This document shows, one piece after another, positions 12,415 to 58,422 of a stretch of DNA of 64,000 bases. The notes beneath the pieces were generated by a model, which saw only the letters and a list, made by a program, of their open reading frames with translations, was not told the origin of the DNA and ran no database searches. This DNA comes from Macrostomum lignano. Lineage: Eukaryota. The stretch is from contig NIVC01003145.1 of the NCBI GenBank assembly GCA_002269645.1, forward strand, positions 52,803 to 116,802. The letters are read 5' to 3'. Positions within the stretch are counted from its first letter, which is position 1. Each line of letters begins with the position of its first letter. The translations under genes and the position numbers were made by a program.

Positions 12415-13421
12415 ATGGCTAGCCTTGCTAAACTTACAGCCCGAGAATTGAAAGCCCAACTCTCCGCGGCTGGCCAGCCAACTAATGGTAACAAGAGAAC
12501 TCTGTTAGCGCGCCTGAAAAGTCTGCAAGGTAGAGACCCTGAACAAGACGACTCAACCAGCAGACGAGAAGAATCAACTGACAGCGAGACCGACAGCCAA
12601 CCGCAGCCCCAGCCACCGCCCCCAACCGCCACCGCTCGACGAAGGGTCAGGACCTGCGCGATGAGATCGAAGCGACCGAGGAACGCATCAGGCTACTGAG
12701 GCTCCAAAAGGAGGAAGCGGAATTGACAGCCGAGCTCAGCGGCAGACGCCATGGCACGAAGACGTATGGTAAGCCAGCTTTTTCTGCTAGTTGGGGCGCC
12801 GCCCATTCTGCCTTGGAGAATATTCCCCTCCTGGAGCAAGATGCTGACCCCACCAAGAGGGGCCCACTTCTCATACCTGACTTCGTCGAAGACTCCGGAA
12901 ATGTCAGCGCTGGCAATAAGAAAGGAACAAATACCAGACAGAAGCCTCTGGAGCAGATTAGCATCGGCGAGTGGATAAGTGCGAATGCGAGAATTCTCCA
13001 GTCCCTGATCGAATCTGGCGAGATGATTGACTGGGAAGCGCGCGCTGCTCCAAGGTTGCATGAGTACCTTGCCTACAACCGCCAGTTAGGCGAACTGCTG
13101 AATAGTGGATTTGACGTCAGTAATGTCCTGCTCTATGATGACAGCTTTCGGAGGCTCCAGCATGAAACCAGTCGTCACTGGGACAACGAGTCTTTCCAGT
13201 TGCTCTCACGACACCTGCTTGCTCCGAATCGGCTTAGCGCTATAGACAGCAACTTGCAGCGTAGAAAGCAGCCACAGAATAGGAGGAATCGCCAAATCTG
13301 CCTGCTCTTCAACCGCGATACCGGCTGTAAGTTTGGCGAGGAATGCAAATTTCAGCATGCTTGCGTCATCTGCAGAAGGGACCATCCGGGTCATCTGCAC
13401 GCTTCAGCGTCAAAAAACTAG
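12415..13421 (+). CDS. Ngaro ORF1 (gag-like): N-terminal SAP-like domain, coiled coil, C-terminal CCCH-type zinc finger; one frameshift between 12582 and 12697
   Basis: LTARELKAQLSAAGQPTNGNKRTLLARL is SAP-like. The frame-0 continuation QDLRDEIEATEERIRLL runs into ORF 12723-13421, which ends CLLFNRDTGCKFGEECKFQHACVICRRDH. Confidence 0.75.
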
Positions 13422-15139
13422 ATGACCGCCCGCCCGCCATTGTAAATAGTTCATCAATCCGCGATTTTATTCCTGATAATTTTCCTACATCCAGCTGTGG
13501 TGACATGCGCTTTTGTGAATGGTCGAAGTATCTTGATGAAGACAGAGATGCCGAGTTTCTCTTAAATGGTATTAGTGCCGGGTTTATGATCACTGATGAT
13601 ACCAAATTCTGCGAAAGCTTTAAGCCTAACTACAACTCTGCGCTCGCGCACCAGGAGCTCGTGGATAAGCAAATTAAAGAAGAGCTAAGAACAGGCCGCT
13701 ATGTGATGTCTTCCACAAAGCCTACGAAGGTCAGCCCGCTGGCAGCAATCCCTAAGGGCAGCTCATCAATCCGGCTGATTCACGACGCCAGCGCTCCGTA
13801 TGGAAATTCTATCAACAGTCACTACCATCAGCAGGAACGCATCCGCTTTCAGTCTATCGATGAATTTTATCGTCTGCTCCGTCCTGGCTGCTTTGTGGCT
13901 AAAGTCGACATCAAGCATGCCTATCGCTCCGTTGGCATTCACCCTTCTTGCTACCCGGCAGCCGGTCTACAATGGAAATTCAAAGGAGCCGACTCGCCGT
14001 GCTACCTGGTTGACACCCGGCTGATGTTTGGCGCAGCTGCCTCCGTGTCCATTTTTCACAGAATCTCGCAGGCGATTGTCCGAATTATGCAGCGGTCTGG
14101 CTTTAGCAATGTCGTTGGTTATTTGGACGACTTTGGCCTTGCCTTTGACAGTAGAGCCAAGTGTGAAGAGGCCTTTGAGTTTTTAACTGGCCTTCTCCAA
14201 CGTCTCGGGTTCGACATCAACTGGGAGAAGAGCAGCGCCCCAGCCCAGACCGTCACCTACCTCGGTGTGAACATCGACACGAGTTCTGGTTTGCTTTGCC
14301 TGCCCCATGATAAGATCGATCTGACTGTCAACCTCGTCCAGCAGATGAAGCTGAAGTCTCGGTTGACTAAGCGGGAGCTTCAGAAGCTGTGTGGCAAGAT
14401 TAACTGGTGGTGCCAGGTCGCTCCTCCCGTGGGTAGAAGTTTCCTGCGCAACCTTATCTCCAGAGTTAACTCTCTAGCTCATCCTAGGCACTGCGTCCGT
14501 ATGGATGAGTCGCTGCGTGGCGAGCTGGAGTGGTGGACCCTGGCTATCCGAAAGCTGAATGGCCGCGAGCTCTGGCCCAAGTATCTCAACGAGTGGGTGC
14601 TGGAGAGTGACTCATCCGAGAAGGCGGGCGGCTGCATCGTCCGCAGCCACAATTTTTGTGACTGGATCTTCATCGACTGGGAGAAGGACTTCAATGGCCA
14701 GTTTGCCAAGTACCCGATCAACTACAAAGAAGCTCTCGTGCCGCTTCTCACTCTGATGGTGCTGCGCCCGCTGCTGAGCCAGTGCAAGGTTGTATGCTAC
14801 GTTGACAATGACCCAGCTGTCTTCATCCTCAACAAGGCTGCTTCTAAGGACCCTGAGCTGCTGCGCCTGCTTCAGACCATTGGTCTCTTCTGTTTCGCTA
14901 ACAAAGTTGTGTTAAGCTTCTTTCATGTGCCGGGCTGGTTTCAGACCTATGCTGACCCCATTTCGCGTCTTCATTCTCGGAGTGGCCTCATTAACTTTTG
15001 CATGCGTTTTTATGGCACTGTGCAAGTGTGCCCGCTTGAATTTGCCTCCCACGCGCTGGCCTCTGCTGCCTCCCATTTTCTGCTTTTACAGGTCCTGACC
15101 CTGCGGTGCGGCGGCTTCGGGGGCGGGCGGCTCGTCTGA
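13343..15139 (+). CDS. Ngaro reverse transcriptase / RNase H
   Basis: RLIHD, KVDIKHAYR, LMFG, YLDD RT motifs; RNase H residues ESDSS, INYKEA, YVDN, HVPG..ADPISR; uninterrupted 598 aa. Confidence 0.95.
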   Translation: MQISACLRHLQKGPSGSSARFSVKKLDDRPPAIVNSSSIRDFIPDNFPTSSCGDMRFCEWSKYLDEDRDAEFLLNGISAGFMITDDTKFCESFKPNYNSALAHQELVDKQIKEELRTGRYVMSSTKPTKVSPLAAIPKGSSSIRLIHDASAPYGNSINSHYHQQERIRFQSIDEFYRLLRPGCFVAKVDIKHAYRSVGIHPSCYPAAGLQWKFKGADSPCYLVDTRLMFGAAASVSIFHRISQAIVRIMQRSGFSNVVGYLDDFGLAFDSRAKCEEAFEFLTGLLQRLGFDINWEKSSAPAQTVTYLGVNIDTSSGLLCLPHDKIDLTVNLVQQMKLKSRLTKRELQKLCGKINWWCQVAPPVGRSFLRNLISRVNSLAHPRHCVRMDESLRGELEWWTLAIRKLNGRELWPKYLNEWVLESDSSEKAGGCIVRSHNFCDWIFIDWEKDFNGQFAKYPINYKEALVPLLTLMVLRPLLSQCKVVCYVDNDPAVFILNKAASKDPELLRLLQTIGLFCFANKVVLSFFHVPGWFQTYADPISRLHSRSGLINFCMRFYGTVQVCPLEFASHALASAASHFLLLQVLTLRCGGFGGGRLV

Positions 15140-52327: not shown

Positions 52328-52597
52328 AGTAGTATAGAAAAAGACGCTTCTAGACCCAGAGCACTTTTTTAATGACCGTTTTAAGGGTCTAGAGGGGGGA
52401 CACGGGGGGTAAATAAAAAAACACATCTAAACACCATTAACACATCTAATCACCCATAATCACCCCTAACAATAAAAATCAATCCCAACACTTCCAAACA
52501 CTCCCCAACACCCCCCTCGCGTCCCCCCTCTTAAGACCTTACAAACGGCCATTAAAATAAGGTCTGATCTAGAAGCGTCTTTTTCTATACTACTACT
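52328..52597. repeat. Fold-back inverted repeat at the left end of the Polinton
   Basis: AGTAGTATAGAAAAAGACGCTTCTAGA (52328-52354) is perfectly inverted at 52568-52594; the arms extend imperfectly to about 85 bp around a ~100-bp A/C-rich loop. Confidence 0.9.
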
Positions 52598-53217: not shown

Positions 53218-54366
53218 TTAGTTCGCAGACATTATTTGGTTCTCATAAAAAGAACCCAATATTTCTTCACCATCCTTATCAGCAATTATATAGGTTGTAG
53301 GATTTGTATTTAAAACTTTACTGATGGTAAATTTCTCACTTATTTTCCAATATCCTTTTCTTCCCTTTTCAAACTTATCTTTCCATTTATAGATATAAAC
53401 AGAATCACCAACCTTAAAACCTTTAGTTTTCTTTTTTTCAAAATCTCCAAAAGTAACCCTAACATTTTCAGGATTGTTATAAGCTTGTTGAGGAGTCATC
53501 TTTATCGCCGAATGATATGAATTGTTATAATCTTTCACTACGTCTGGTAATATTTTTACCCACTTTTGGTTACCATTAAGACTAAACTGAAACCATAATT
53601 TCTTACCTAAAGTTCGATTAAATCTTTCTATTAATGCGTTTTTACTCTCTCCATAAATAGAATAAATTTTATTAATATACTCCCCATTCGCGTCTTTTTT
53701 CCTTTCTTTTCCTTTTTCAAAATGATACAATTTATACATGTGAGGATTGTAAAATTCTTTTCCTTCGTCAACACACAACCTTTCACTTTTTTCTCCAAGA
53801 CTTCTAAAAGCAGCAGCAACCTCCTCTCCCTTTTTGGATTTTAAAGGAACAGCCCACGCGTATCGAGTAAAACCATCTAATATGGTTAAGATATATTTAT
53901 ATCCTCTTTCGTTCGGCATCGACATTAAATCAGCATACCAAATTTCATTCTTTTTGAAGTTCATGATTTTTCTATAAAATTTAGGTTTTCGATATTCTTT
54001 ATGAAGAATCTTTGCCTCATCAGAACTTAACCCGCCGCCACTTAACAACAAACACTCAACACAATTATTTCCATGTTGATTATAATTAATTCCCAAACCA
54101 AATTTAACTTTAGACTGCAAGATCTTTTTAACCATCCACCTAGTTAATTTTTGACCTACCGATAATCCCTGCAAGTTATCTAATCCTTGAATCATTTTTT
54201 GATCGGCTTCATGTTTTAATCTTAATGCTTCCTCGGGCGGGTTCTTGTCAGCATCTCTATATGCTAAGTCGTGATAGTATGCTAACCAATCAATCCCATT
54301 TATTGGAATTGAATCAGATTTTGGGGTGTCATCAGGATTTAATCTCAAATCTAAGCGAGTGCCGGG
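53218..54366 (-). CDS. PLA2-like domain / retroviral-type (rve) integrase fusion gene, exon 2
   Basis: PGTRL...YYHDLAY (PLA2 HDxxY), then Polinton integrase with the DDE triad (YADL, VDEGKEF, IERFNRT) and C-terminal FKVGD...GSFYE; spliced product 424 aa. Confidence 0.92.
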   Translation of the reverse strand, partial: PGTRLDLRLNPDDTPKSDSIPINGIDWLAYYHDLAYRDADKNPPEEALRLKHEADQKMIQGLDNLQGLSVGQKLTRWMVKKILQSKVKFGLGINYNQHGNNCVECLLLSGGGLSSDEAKILHKEYRKPKFYRKIMNFKKNEIWYADLMSMPNERGYKYILTILDGFTRYAWAVPLKSKKGEEVAAAFRSLGEKSERLCVDEGKEFYNPHMYKLYHFEKGKERKKDANGEYINKIYSIYGESKNALIERFNRTLGKKLWFQFSLNGNQKWVKILPDVVKDYNNSYHSAIKMTPQQAYNNPENVRVTFGDFEKKKTKGFKVGDSVYIYKWKDKFEKGRKGYWKISEKFTISKVLNTNPTTYIIADKDGEEILGSFYENQIMSAN

Positions 54367-54698
54367 TAGTTTACCCTCAATCTTTCGAAAGAGGCTGGAG
54401 CACACCTTAAGCGGTTAAATTACCGCCCATCTCCGTCTGCTCTCTGAACCTTCTCCTTATATTTAAAATACTTAGGAGCTTGGCTGCGCATTGCCACCGT
54501 GTCTTCAAGCTTGTTACCATCGAACCATAGGTTCGCGTGCAAAGCACGATTGGGAAGAGGAGTTACCTCTGTTCCTTCAAAAGATTTCTCAATTGAAGTG
54601 GTACTTGAAGCTGTATGATGGGTTTCACGCAATTTGGAGATGTCGCCACAAATAGTGACTAGCAAGGACATTGCCTTCCTCACTCAGGCCACGGGTTA
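54367..54698 (-). ncRNA. Group I self-splicing intron (IC1-like), 332 nt, without a homing ORF
   Basis: P1 CAGGU/GCCUG with U.G at the splice site; P3 CAUCUCC/GGAGAUG; P4 UGCGUG/UGCGCA; P7 G(A)GAGCA/UGCUCC; P8 GCGGU/ACCGC; A-rich bulge AUGGUAACAAGC; GAAA loops in L5b and L9; CCUAAG..UAAGG receptor. Removing it restores the ORF. Confidence 0.92.
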
Positions 54699-54824
54699 AC
54701 CTGTGAAGTTCATTGATGGTAGGTGTAGTTCCCCTGTATATTTACCAGTAGTAAAGATTGGTGGTAAGCTTGTTAATCCTTTTTGAACATCTAACAATCC
54801 TCCTTCAAACACTATTTGGTTCAT
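54699..54824 (-). CDS. PLA2-like domain / integrase fusion gene, exon 1 (MNQ...GELHLPSMNFTG)
   Basis: TAAAAATG start. ELHLPxxNFxG is the N-terminal half of the parvovirus-type PLA2 motif, and it joins exon 2 in frame to give NFTG|PGTRL. Confidence 0.85.
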
Positions 54825-55374
54825 TTTTAATAGCCTTAAAAATACATGAAAGCACCAATTGTTTTGCAAACTCTTCAATGGTTGGTTGTTTAACTTTTTT
54901 ATAGTTATTATCTACGCTAGTTAAGTATCTTTTATTTGTCCAATGTTCAGACTTTTTCATCTGATCTTCATCTTTGTAACTAAACGAAGAAGCGGGAATG
55001 AAATGATCAATATCTAAATTTCCAGTATAATCTTTTGAAACATAATATTTTCTTGTGAAATTTAACCAATCAAAAAAGAATTCTTTTGTGCAATCAAGAT
55101 ATGAGATATAGTCCTTGTCATTAAAATTTTTCAACGCCCAATTTATTCTATTTCTAATTAAAACAATATGTTTGTAATTATCATCATTGTGATACTTGTT
55201 TTTTCTATATTCATTAAATTTATCTTTATTGTTTTTCATCCAAATAGTAGATGAGGTATTATGACAAGATCGACAATCATTTCTAAATTTTTTTGAATCA
55301 TTTCTCCAAAAATAAAATTCTTTCGTCATTGGTTTTTCTTGTTTACACTTAATACAAATCTTTTTAGGTTCCAT
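54805..55374 (-). CDS. HNH-type endonuclease with an N-terminal Cys4 zinc finger (free-standing homing-endonuclease-like)
   Basis: CIKC...CRSC; IDHFIPASSF...HWTNKRYL..VDNNYKK resembles the DHIIP...N...L...N..K HNH motif; overlaps exon 1 of the next gene by 20 nt. Confidence 0.75.
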   Translation of the reverse strand: MEPKKICIKCKQEKPMTKEFYFWRNDSKKFRNDCRSCHNTSSTIWMKNNKDKFNEYRKNKYHNDDNYKHIVLIRNRINWALKNFNDKDYISYLDCTKEFFFDWLNFTRKYYVSKDYTGNLDIDHFIPASSFSYKDEDQMKKSEHWTNKRYLTSVDNNYKKVKQPTIEEFAKQLVLSCIFKAIKNEPNSV

Positions 55375-56107: not shown

Positions 56108-57577
56108 ATGGCTGAAACAAAAACTATGTGGAGTGATAAATTTCATTTCAAAAAGCACCGACAGTATATTAATGAGGTCAGAGCAAGAGATTTAAATTAT
56201 ACCCTACCAACAAGTGATAATTCAAATAACTTTACTACTGGAACGGTAACTTTTGACATCGGCGCAACCAACACTATATTGGATATGAAAAATGCATTTT
56301 TCCGTGTTAGATGGTTGTATACTAGAAATGATGGAACTGCTCTTGCAGCCGGAGATATCGCAGATCGATCCGGAATAATAATAGAAAATGATTGGTTTTA
56401 TAAATGTTTTTCCCAAGCTCAACTAACTGTTAATGGTGCTGAGGTTGAGACATCATCAAACCCCGCAGAGATTAATGGAGTTTTGAAACATTTAAATTAT
56501 ACTTATTTATCAAAACAAGTTGGTGATAATGTTGGGTGGATGCCGGATAAAGGTAACGGTCAAGCAGTAGTTTTCCCTAATGTACAAAACGCAGCCGGTG
56601 CAGATACTGCAGCGCTAATTGTTTACCTTAATACAAACATAGTTCCAGTTGTAACCACTATGACTAATACAAAAGATATTAATACTGGTTTTATAGATAG
56701 ACAGACTAAATTCCCAGTAGCGGTTTTAACCACAGCAACAGCATATGAGCAGGACTTTTCAATCTTCCGCTATTTGGGTTCTTCTCACCAAATCGGTATG
56801 GAAAGGATTAAAATTTGGGATACAGTTGCAAATATCTGGTGGATATCAGCCTAGGATACTTTATGGAACCTCAATTTCAACCGATATAGCAGTTCGTATA
56901 GATTCAATTCAATTAGTCGTACCAACTATTGAGGTAACAGCCCCACTTTTAAAACACATCGATAATCAGTTAACGCATGATCAGGAAATATTTTATTTGA
57001 ATCGTCGACATTTTATGCGAACCATTAATAATAACCAGGATTCATTCCAGTGGCAAATACTGACATCAAAACGTCGGGTGAGATATATTTTTGTTTGGTT
57101 TAAGATAACAAATAGAAGGAGTAAAAGAGCAAATGGGGATTTATATTGGCTTCAATCCGGTGCCATAGCAGAACAAGCAGCCACCGCAACAGACAATGCG
57201 GCTGCAGCTATTAACGAGTTTAATGTTCAGAATATCCGCCTGCAGGTTGATGATCAATATTATCCGGTTAAAGACCCCTAAATTTAAATATAGCAAATAA
57301 TAATGTTAATGATTTTATAAAATATTATCAAGATTATGCTAAAAATGAAGCGTATGCCGTCCCTCAGTACACACCCACAGAGTTTCTAAACATTCATCCA
57401 GTGGTTGTTTATGATCTAACGGCACAGAAAGAAAACGTAGCCAATATTGGACTTAATTATATGTTAGAGATTAATAAAACTGGTAATCAGGCACTTGACG
57501 CCCACGTATTGTTTCTAGAGGAATATATGTCAATTGCTAAAGCTGATGGCACGATTGTTCGGGACGCGCCACTTTAG
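56108..57577 (+). CDS. Major capsid protein (double jelly-roll), two single-base frameshifts near 56780 and 57278
   Basis: FSQAQLTVNGAEVE...VGW; the second frame continues TKSVWKGLKFGIQL...QYYPVKDP; the third continues LNLNI...EFLNIHPVVVYDLTAQKE...APL-stop at 57575-57577. Confidence 0.85.
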
Positions 57578-57660: not shown

Positions 57661-58422
57661 ATGGTAAAGGCAAAACACGATAAGATATTTCCAAATGATC
57701 CTTTTCTTTGTTTAGTAATCGGAGGATCAGGTAAAGGAAAAACACACTTTGTTTACGATTTATTAACAACAGATGGAATGCTAGACTATAATAATTTAAT
57801 AATTTATACTAATAAACCTAGAATAAAATATTATGAATTTCTTAAACATGGATTAAAAAACAAATTAAAAAAAGATGTCTTGTTTAGAATGTTAAGAGCA
57901 TATGAGCAATATGAGGATGATGACGAACCGCGATTTACACTCGATGACATTGAGGATTTATGTAAAACAATGGCACAACAGCCAGAAAACATCACCGAAC
58001 GAGCCCCAACTGTTAGAGTATCAACCCGATTAGCCTATGATCAAATTCCAAAACATGATAAAACACTAATTATTTTTGATGATTGTATTAATGACGGTGA
58101 TCAAGAATTGCAAAAGGAAATTTTTGTTAGTGGTAGAGGAGATGGAATTGGAGCTTTTTATCTAACACAGTCCTTTAGAGAATTAGAATCGATTATAAAA
58201 AAGAATGCAAGTTGTTGTGTAATGTTTGATTTAGATAATTATGATTTACAAAATATACACGCTAGATTTAATCCCGGGTTGGATGCAAAACCATTTAAAA
58301 GTATGTGTAAAAAAATTTGGGATGATAGCCAATACAAACATATTTATATCAATCCGAGGTTAGAAAGGAAAAATCGAATCTTAAAAGATCTTATAAAAGA
58401 AGACAATGAGGAAGAAGAATAA
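57661..58422 (+). CDS. A32/FtsK-like DNA packaging ATPase
   Basis: Walker A GGSGKGKT, Walker B LIIFDD, and the SGRG...FYLTQS motif. Confidence 0.93.
   Translation: MVKAKHDKIFPNDPFLCLVIGGSGKGKTHFVYDLLTTDGMLDYNNLIIYTNKPRIKYYEFLKHGLKNKLKKDVLFRMLRAYEQYEDDDEPRFTLDDIEDLCKTMAQQPENITERAPTVRVSTRLAYDQIPKHDKTLIIFDDCINDGDQELQKEIFVSGRGDGIGAFYLTQSFRELESIIKKNASCCVMFDLDNYDLQNIHARFNPGLDAKPFKSMCKKIWDDSQYKHIYINPRLERKNRILKDLIKEDNEEEE

Follow-up and report, generated by a model that had tools for sequence, protein, structure and literature searches.

Does a group I intron that ends in A, where introns of this class almost universally carry a terminal guanosine (omega-G), represent an inherited form, a mutation confined to one copy or a sequencing error, and could such an intron still be spliced? 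The question is raised by a 332-nt group I intron on the minus strand (54698-54367) of a 64,000-nucleotide stretch of the Macrostomum lignano genome (contig NIVC01003145.1; hereafter the window), where it splits a PLA2-like/integrase gene (Table 1). An earlier note on this DNA had read the final base as A and had offered as explanations a natural omega-A intron whose slow second step limits integrase expression, a G-to-A mutation that disabled this copy, and a base-call error. A local covariance-model search matched RF00028 (Rfam) at 54708-54376 (62.1 bits, E 2.6e-15; gathering score 50), whereas a whole-window Rfam search with a fast filter at the gathering threshold missed the intron. To judge from its sequence, the insert resembles a group I intron in every other feature tested, that is, the RF00028 match, the U-G wobble of P1, a P3-P8 core with the guanosine site in P7, and restoration of the reading frame on removal; the departure is the last base, A54367 in place of omega-G. 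Unspliced RNA would stop after 42 codons.

Table 1. Coordinates of the intron, its predicted structural elements, the flanking exons and neighbouring features in the window.
Feature	Position	Strand	Remarks
Group I intron	54367..54698	-	332 nt, without ORF; reading on in the exon-1 frame meets a stop at the first intron codon
Omega position	54367	-	A; in the copies read, 82/111 A and 29/111 G
Alternative 3' splice site (less likely)	54376	-	Only nearby in-frame G
P9.0 3' strand (CU)	54368..54369	-	
P9.0 5' strand (AG)	54395..54396	-	Immediately behind P7
P9 hairpin, GAAA loop	54375..54394	-	G54376 paired in stem
P7 3' strand	54397..54402	-	C54398 pairs with G54442
P7 5' strand	54438..54444	-	Bulged A54443; G54442 in the canonical guanosine-binding pair
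P3, P4, P5 with P5abc extension, P6, P8	54410..54642	-	
Internal guide sequence	54685..54698	-	P1 3' strand 54689-54685, plus P10 partner
Exon 1	54699..54824	-	42 codons, start of PLA2-like domain
Exon 2	53218..54366	-	382 codons, rest of PLA2-like domain and rve integrase core
Free-standing endonuclease VII/HNH-like ORF	54805..55374	-	189 aa; phrog_1035, E 9e-7
Element end	52328..52594	.	Fold-back of ~270 nt with a perfect 27-bp internal inverted repeat and an inner 19-bp one

The element that carries the intron is best classed as a Polinton. A packaging ATPase (PF04665) lies at 57661-58419, and paralogs (among them C3109, C3469, C5207 and C506) have a protein-primed DNA polymerase B (PF03175) some 10 kb away from the intron; the polymerase is absent from the window copy, where the contig stops at the edge of the window. 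Of 41 copies checked, 39 share one element end, and these lie at 37 flanks. The motif split by the intron belongs to the PLA2-like domain (PF08398), which was recovered with E values of 3e-8 to 4e-9 in all three natural intronless paralogs searched; the rve integrase match (PF00665, E 1.6e-7) falls slightly under the curated cut-off, and no PDB match was found for the start of exon 2. An internal ATG in exon 2 at 54195 opens a frame of 325 amino acids containing the whole integrase core, so the integrase need not depend on splicing. Directly upstream, the endonuclease VII/HNH-like ORF overlaps the start of exon 1; it is also present upstream of 3 of the 11 intronless loci, and is a candidate mobiliser and a candidate for collaborative homing. 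No capsid match was found in Pfam for the ORFs at 56108-57577 and 58437-59222 (for the first piece, none in PHROGs either), and we take 56108-57577 (+) to be the probable capsid gene on the basis of its position. This putative capsid gene is split over three overlapping frames, at ~56750-56850 and 57270-57280, reflecting either decay or assembly indels. Elsewhere in the window, an ORF at 59899-60726 (+) contains about eight tandem 17-residue repeats and is followed by an ORF with a weak match to the F5/8 type C domain, and a retroelement reverse transcriptase ORF (PF00078) occupies 13343-15139 (+).

The ribozyme structure predicted for the window copy is retained across the A-ending copies. 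The 82 A copies comprise 56 distinct sequences, one truncated copy of which was omitted, and across the remaining 55 the 76 pairs of the model were paired in 99.2% of cells, a figure flattered by the structure having been drawn from the window copy. Six pairs had changed on both sides in this set, against 3.3 in shuffles (0 of 500 as high, a test that relatedness of the copies inflates) and 0-1 in slid-structure controls. The mean minor-allele fraction was 0.002 in core motifs versus 0.048 in the unpaired periphery, P7 and P9.0 were invariant across the 55 sequences, and so was the P1 wobble at the 5' splice site, U54699-G54689 (55/55). The pair G54442-C54398 is presumably equivalent to G264-C311 of Tetrahymena, and the predicted guanosine-binding site is canonical, without rewiring that would favour A. 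Subgroup IC1 is a candidate label for the intron, in which a P5abc extension is present. An optional 30-nt double-hairpin insert occurs in P5 at 54521-54550 (-), and short palindromic inserts of a similar kind occur just past the exon-1 start in other copies and runs (54818-54821 in paralogs).

The 3' splice site can be placed from natural alleles. Eleven of 147 paralogous loci are intronless and read G-P-G-T continuously across the insertion site, which fixes the exon junction and bears out the proposal of the earlier note that the splice restores this motif. In the window, A54367 is preceded by C54369-U54368 and followed by exon-2 codons for P-G-T; CU precedes 54367 alone among the 22 positions scanned from 54381 to 54360. 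As the note had also suggested, this CU can pair with the AG behind P7 (54369-54368 with 54396-54395), forming a P9.0 that is invariant in the A-ending set. The predicted splice site is thus set by the intronless paralogs, the P9.0 pairing and the G-ending sister introns together, and with it the position and structure of the A form are established. Every one of the 82 A copies retains the CU of P9.0. Of the 29 G copies, 12 have a disrupted CU, through three different changes, which are too few events for significance. The duplex of guide sequence and P10 has an energy of -13.2 kcal/mol in the common A type versus -17.5 kcal/mol in the common G type; compensation through P10 in A copies had been suggested by pair counting and is contradicted by these energies. 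In local folds the last intron base is buried in a hairpin across the splice site in 54/82 A copies and 6/29 G copies. A 5-bp hairpin at 54361-54376 (-) is possible in the common A haplotype; it would bridge the 3' splice site as a competitor of P9.0 and P10.

The earlier note had proposed comparing base 54367 across paralogous Polinton copies and had held that a G in most of them would speak against a natural omega-A. We read 147 paralogous loci, 30 from one search and 117 from 150 hits of another (150 of 436 candidates scored, four listed hits not being included among the 147), which comprise 111 copies of the window intron (type 1), 24 type 2 introns, one type 3 intron and the 11 intronless loci. 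Read on the minus strand, the final base of type 1 is A in 82 of 111 copies, including the window copy, and G in only 29. Exact genome-wide patterns, which miss some variants, gave 81 A versus 23 G, and haplotypes may inflate such copy counts, many Wnt genes of this genome being present in 2-4 near-identical copies. The element end was found in 34 of 36 A copies checked, at 32 different flanks, and 18 of the 20 pairs of A copies that differ at <=3 of 1550 bases are located at different flanks. Contigs of two other public runs agree: record 14 of run X2 (54332-54414) has no differences from the window, and record 26 of run X8 has four, which appear to be accounted for by rows at 54325-54331, so that A is apparently kept. 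A54367 is a real inherited variant, neither a base-call error nor a private mutation, and the A form, present in a widespread lineage, has spread recently and now outnumbers the G form; its inheritance, frequency and recent spread are established by these comparisons. Among the three explanations originally offered, the paralog census and the runs thus leave the natural inherited omega-A standing and remove the other two. The note did not anticipate that A and G segregate within the family, or that a variant splicing poorly throughout the family may be involved.

Some copies have introns identical except at the 3' end, which is A in one and G in another. The first codon of exon 2 is C-C-C in 73/82 A copies and 2/29 G copies, and linkage with the last intron base, calculated for 90 copies, has r2 values of 0.59 at +3, 0.34 at -1 and 0.33 at +6, with values of <=0.12 at all other positions. 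Linkage of A therefore reaches only about 6 neighbouring bases, and the copies recombine freely. It follows that signals of selection belong to the family and are not creditable to the A allele, and the selection seen in exons and helices may have taken place in backgrounds that ended in G or had no intron. Exon 2 is open for at least 380 codons in 51/82 A copies and 16/29 G copies, pN/pS for exon-2 codons 1-57, upstream of the internal ATG, is 0.09 in A (66 copies) versus 0.08 in G (25 copies), and pN/pS for the last 36 codons of exon 1 is 0.31 in A (71 copies) versus 0.33 in G (22 copies). A tree of 110 of the 111 introns and one outgroup has 14 scattered state changes; with 43 of its 71 branches unresolved and recombination evident, no order of events is drawn from it. 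No match was obtained with a degenerate pattern designed for an intronless version of the exon type found in the window. Contigs of four runs (guessed to be RNA, possibly DNA) over 54050-54950 contained no joint across the intron and are uninformative on splicing, as such contigs drop rare forms and could have lost spliced ones.

Two other intron types occupy the same site. The type 3 sister intron ends in CU-G in 28 of 28 Rfam hits; these copies (L161-L188) belong to a divergent Polinton family and measure 836-895 nt in the 27 of 28 with a 5' end found. Their P2 carries an ORF matching PF09553 (RE_Eco47II, E 2.4e-7; e.g. L165:1092-1619 +), a candidate homing nuclease of restriction-enzyme type. 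By eye, the gene end upstream of exon 1 in L081, L082, L088, L097 and L126 resembles the tail of this ORF, and the nuclease may occur both free-standing and inside the intron. The type 2 intron (24 copies; L088, L089, L095, L096 and 20 further loci) has P2 and P5abc sequence in common with type 1, whereas its P3-P7 core differs, and it looks to be a mosaic. Three Gs are in frame at its 3' end, but none yields P-G-T, and 18 of 24 copies keep an open exon 2, indicating that exact restoration of the loop may not be required. Outside this genome, 6 of 32 viral pattern matches have group I core motifs. Introns of giant viruses (IMG/VR L198, L200, L209, L211, L216) have the same P6-P7 core motifs, although they sit in the gene for the large RNA polymerase subunit and several appear with long ORFs. 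In one of them, L198, the exon resumes in frame, and its AG, P9, loop and CU tail are those of the window intron, but it ends in G. With both outgroups (type 3 and L198) ending in CU-G, G is probably ancestral at the omega position. The intron core was found in 0 of 67 metagenome matches, a single viral-contig hit to exon 2 proved spurious, and six homologous proteins were found without genomic context.

Omega-A is itself a known rarity, known only as isolated cases. The L1917 intron of Coxiella burnetii reportedly ends in A and splices more slowly and is not known to be polymorphic, and a stony coral mitochondrial ND5 intron is likewise said to have omega-A. L1917 is described, in the part of the report available, as a self-splicing group I intron of 23S rRNA without canonical omega-G (Raghavan et al. 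2007, J Bacteriol 189:6572), and it differs from the window intron as a bacterial rRNA intron with a LAGLIDADG gene, of subgroup IB2 according to PMC11019260. The available portion of PMC6545197 does not state omega-A for stony corals. In Stichodactyla haddoni, the omega-A intron ND5-717 yields ligated ND5 mRNA and, like the window intron, has A as its last base, interrupts a protein gene and resides in an animal host (PMC8146996, available in part). As described there it is mitochondrial, obligatory and single-copy with genes carried in P8, whereas the window intron is ORF-less, optional and multi-copy in a nuclear-integrated Polinton where A and G forms coexist.

On balance we lean, by a modest majority of our confidence, towards an omega-A intron that is tolerated and remains able to splice at the A, its second step being probably slowed. 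On this reading it is a structurally intact group I intron of a Polinton family, in which one lineage, now widespread, had its last base altered from G to A. Its first step would use free guanosine at the unchanged P7 site, and we infer that it is normal because P1 and P7 are intact. In the second step the 3' splice site would be positioned by P9.0 and P10, not by a tight fit of the last base, and ligation of the exons would follow A54367 and probably be slower than in copies with a final G. A slower second step with omega-A is reportedly known from mutant studies and from the Coxiella intron; our literature search on omega-A mutants found nothing. The omega-A reading is favoured by the A majority, its spread at many flanks, intact structure, open frames and the precedent of ND5-717.

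Clearly less probable, at somewhat over a quarter of our confidence, is that splicing of the A form is poor or absent, and that this form was spread by recombination or homing and integrated with protein that G-ending or intronless copies supply in trans or that is made from the internal ATG (54195). Such a history would sit well with the fine-scale recombination around the last base and with state changes scattered over a poorly resolved tree; helper copies exist (11/147 loci intronless, 29/111 G-ending), an endonuclease-like gene adjoins, the integrase core lies within the 325-aa internal ORF, and the type 2 intron has spread despite its odd 3' end. It sits less well with A being the majority allele and present in the youngest expansions, with the lack of any extra decay of core, P9.0 or reading frame in A copies, and with the documented function of an omega-A intron (PMC8146996, as available in part). 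A special case of the omega-A reading, of which we are doubtful, is a two-state dial, in which both alleles are kept and the commoner A form would help elements to spread by lowering or delaying PLA2-like/integrase output or by shielding the RNA from 3' hydrolysis; a tolerated variant suffices for the data, and an adaptive throttle is unnecessary.

Splicing at the upstream in-frame G54376, regarded in the earlier note as the lesser alternative, is unlikely. It would remain in frame, introduce no stop and add G-K-L to the PLA2-like loop, G54376 is the only in-frame G nearby, and the type 2 intron suggests that the loop tolerates change. That base is however paired within the co-varying stem of P9 and lacks a partner for P9.0, and its guide duplex is -7.8 kcal/mol against -13.2 kcal/mol for A54367. 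The Rfam alignment does end at G54376, an artefact of the model, which likewise stops 9 nt early on G-ending sister introns. A bypass of the ribozyme by host splicing at GT-AG sites seems improbable: 28 of 84 pairs near the intron ends are in frame (e.g. donors 54700 or 54745 with acceptor 54351), but one third is the chance expectation, none reproduces the natural intronless junction, stop-free pairs would remove 6 to 45 codons of the conserved domain, and the ribozyme core is conserved. We think it very improbable that host A-to-I editing converts the last base to inosine, which can act at the guanosine site, making splicing host-dependent. Such editing is conceivable in an animal host, to which the Wnt genes point, and the base can be folded into a short duplex, but that duplex is only about 8 bp, short for ADAR, and G-ending paralogs would mimic editing in reads. 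Finally, although some copies have single-base indels typical of long-read assemblies, a base-call error or a mutation private to the window copy is negligibly probable, since A recurs in 82/111 copies, was found at 32 flanks and is also seen in contigs from two further public runs.

A 2013 review, in its available part, has nuclear group I introns confined to rRNA genes of microbial eukaryotes (PMC3679873), a rule already broken by protist Polinton-like viruses, in which RF00028 introns of 309-376 bp lie in protein genes of integrated elements (PMC12220804, partial text). Within that text these occur in three protist groups only and in a short gene that precedes the capsid gene, with omega-A unmentioned, unlike the window intron with its animal host and PLA2-like/integrase gene. 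The host element shares the rve integrase, packaging ATPase, protein-primed polymerase (in paralogs) and PLA2-like domain with animal Polintons/Mavericks and adintoviruses, but in the accessible part of their description the domain is a PLA2X with a pX-like tail (PMC8502044), whereas the PLA2-like domain of the window is fused to the integrase. In the literature searched, which covered few subscription papers and no supplements, no group I intron was found in an animal Polinton, nor was one found in the available portions of 10.1101/2023.08.22.554363, PMC11296320, PMC11131425, PMC8502044 and 10.64898/2026.10.13.758929.

What is new is the segregation of A and G in one multi-copy intron family, and the presence of group I introns in a protein gene of an animal Polinton, introns that were probably taken from giant viruses. 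Since A and G occur in otherwise identical introns of one genome, the cost or tolerance of omega-A is directly testable through natural pairs. If the introns splice, they would be ribozymes acting on protein-coding RNA in an animal nucleus, and should the two alleles indeed be kept for their different output, this would be a ribozyme-regulated protein gene in that nucleus.
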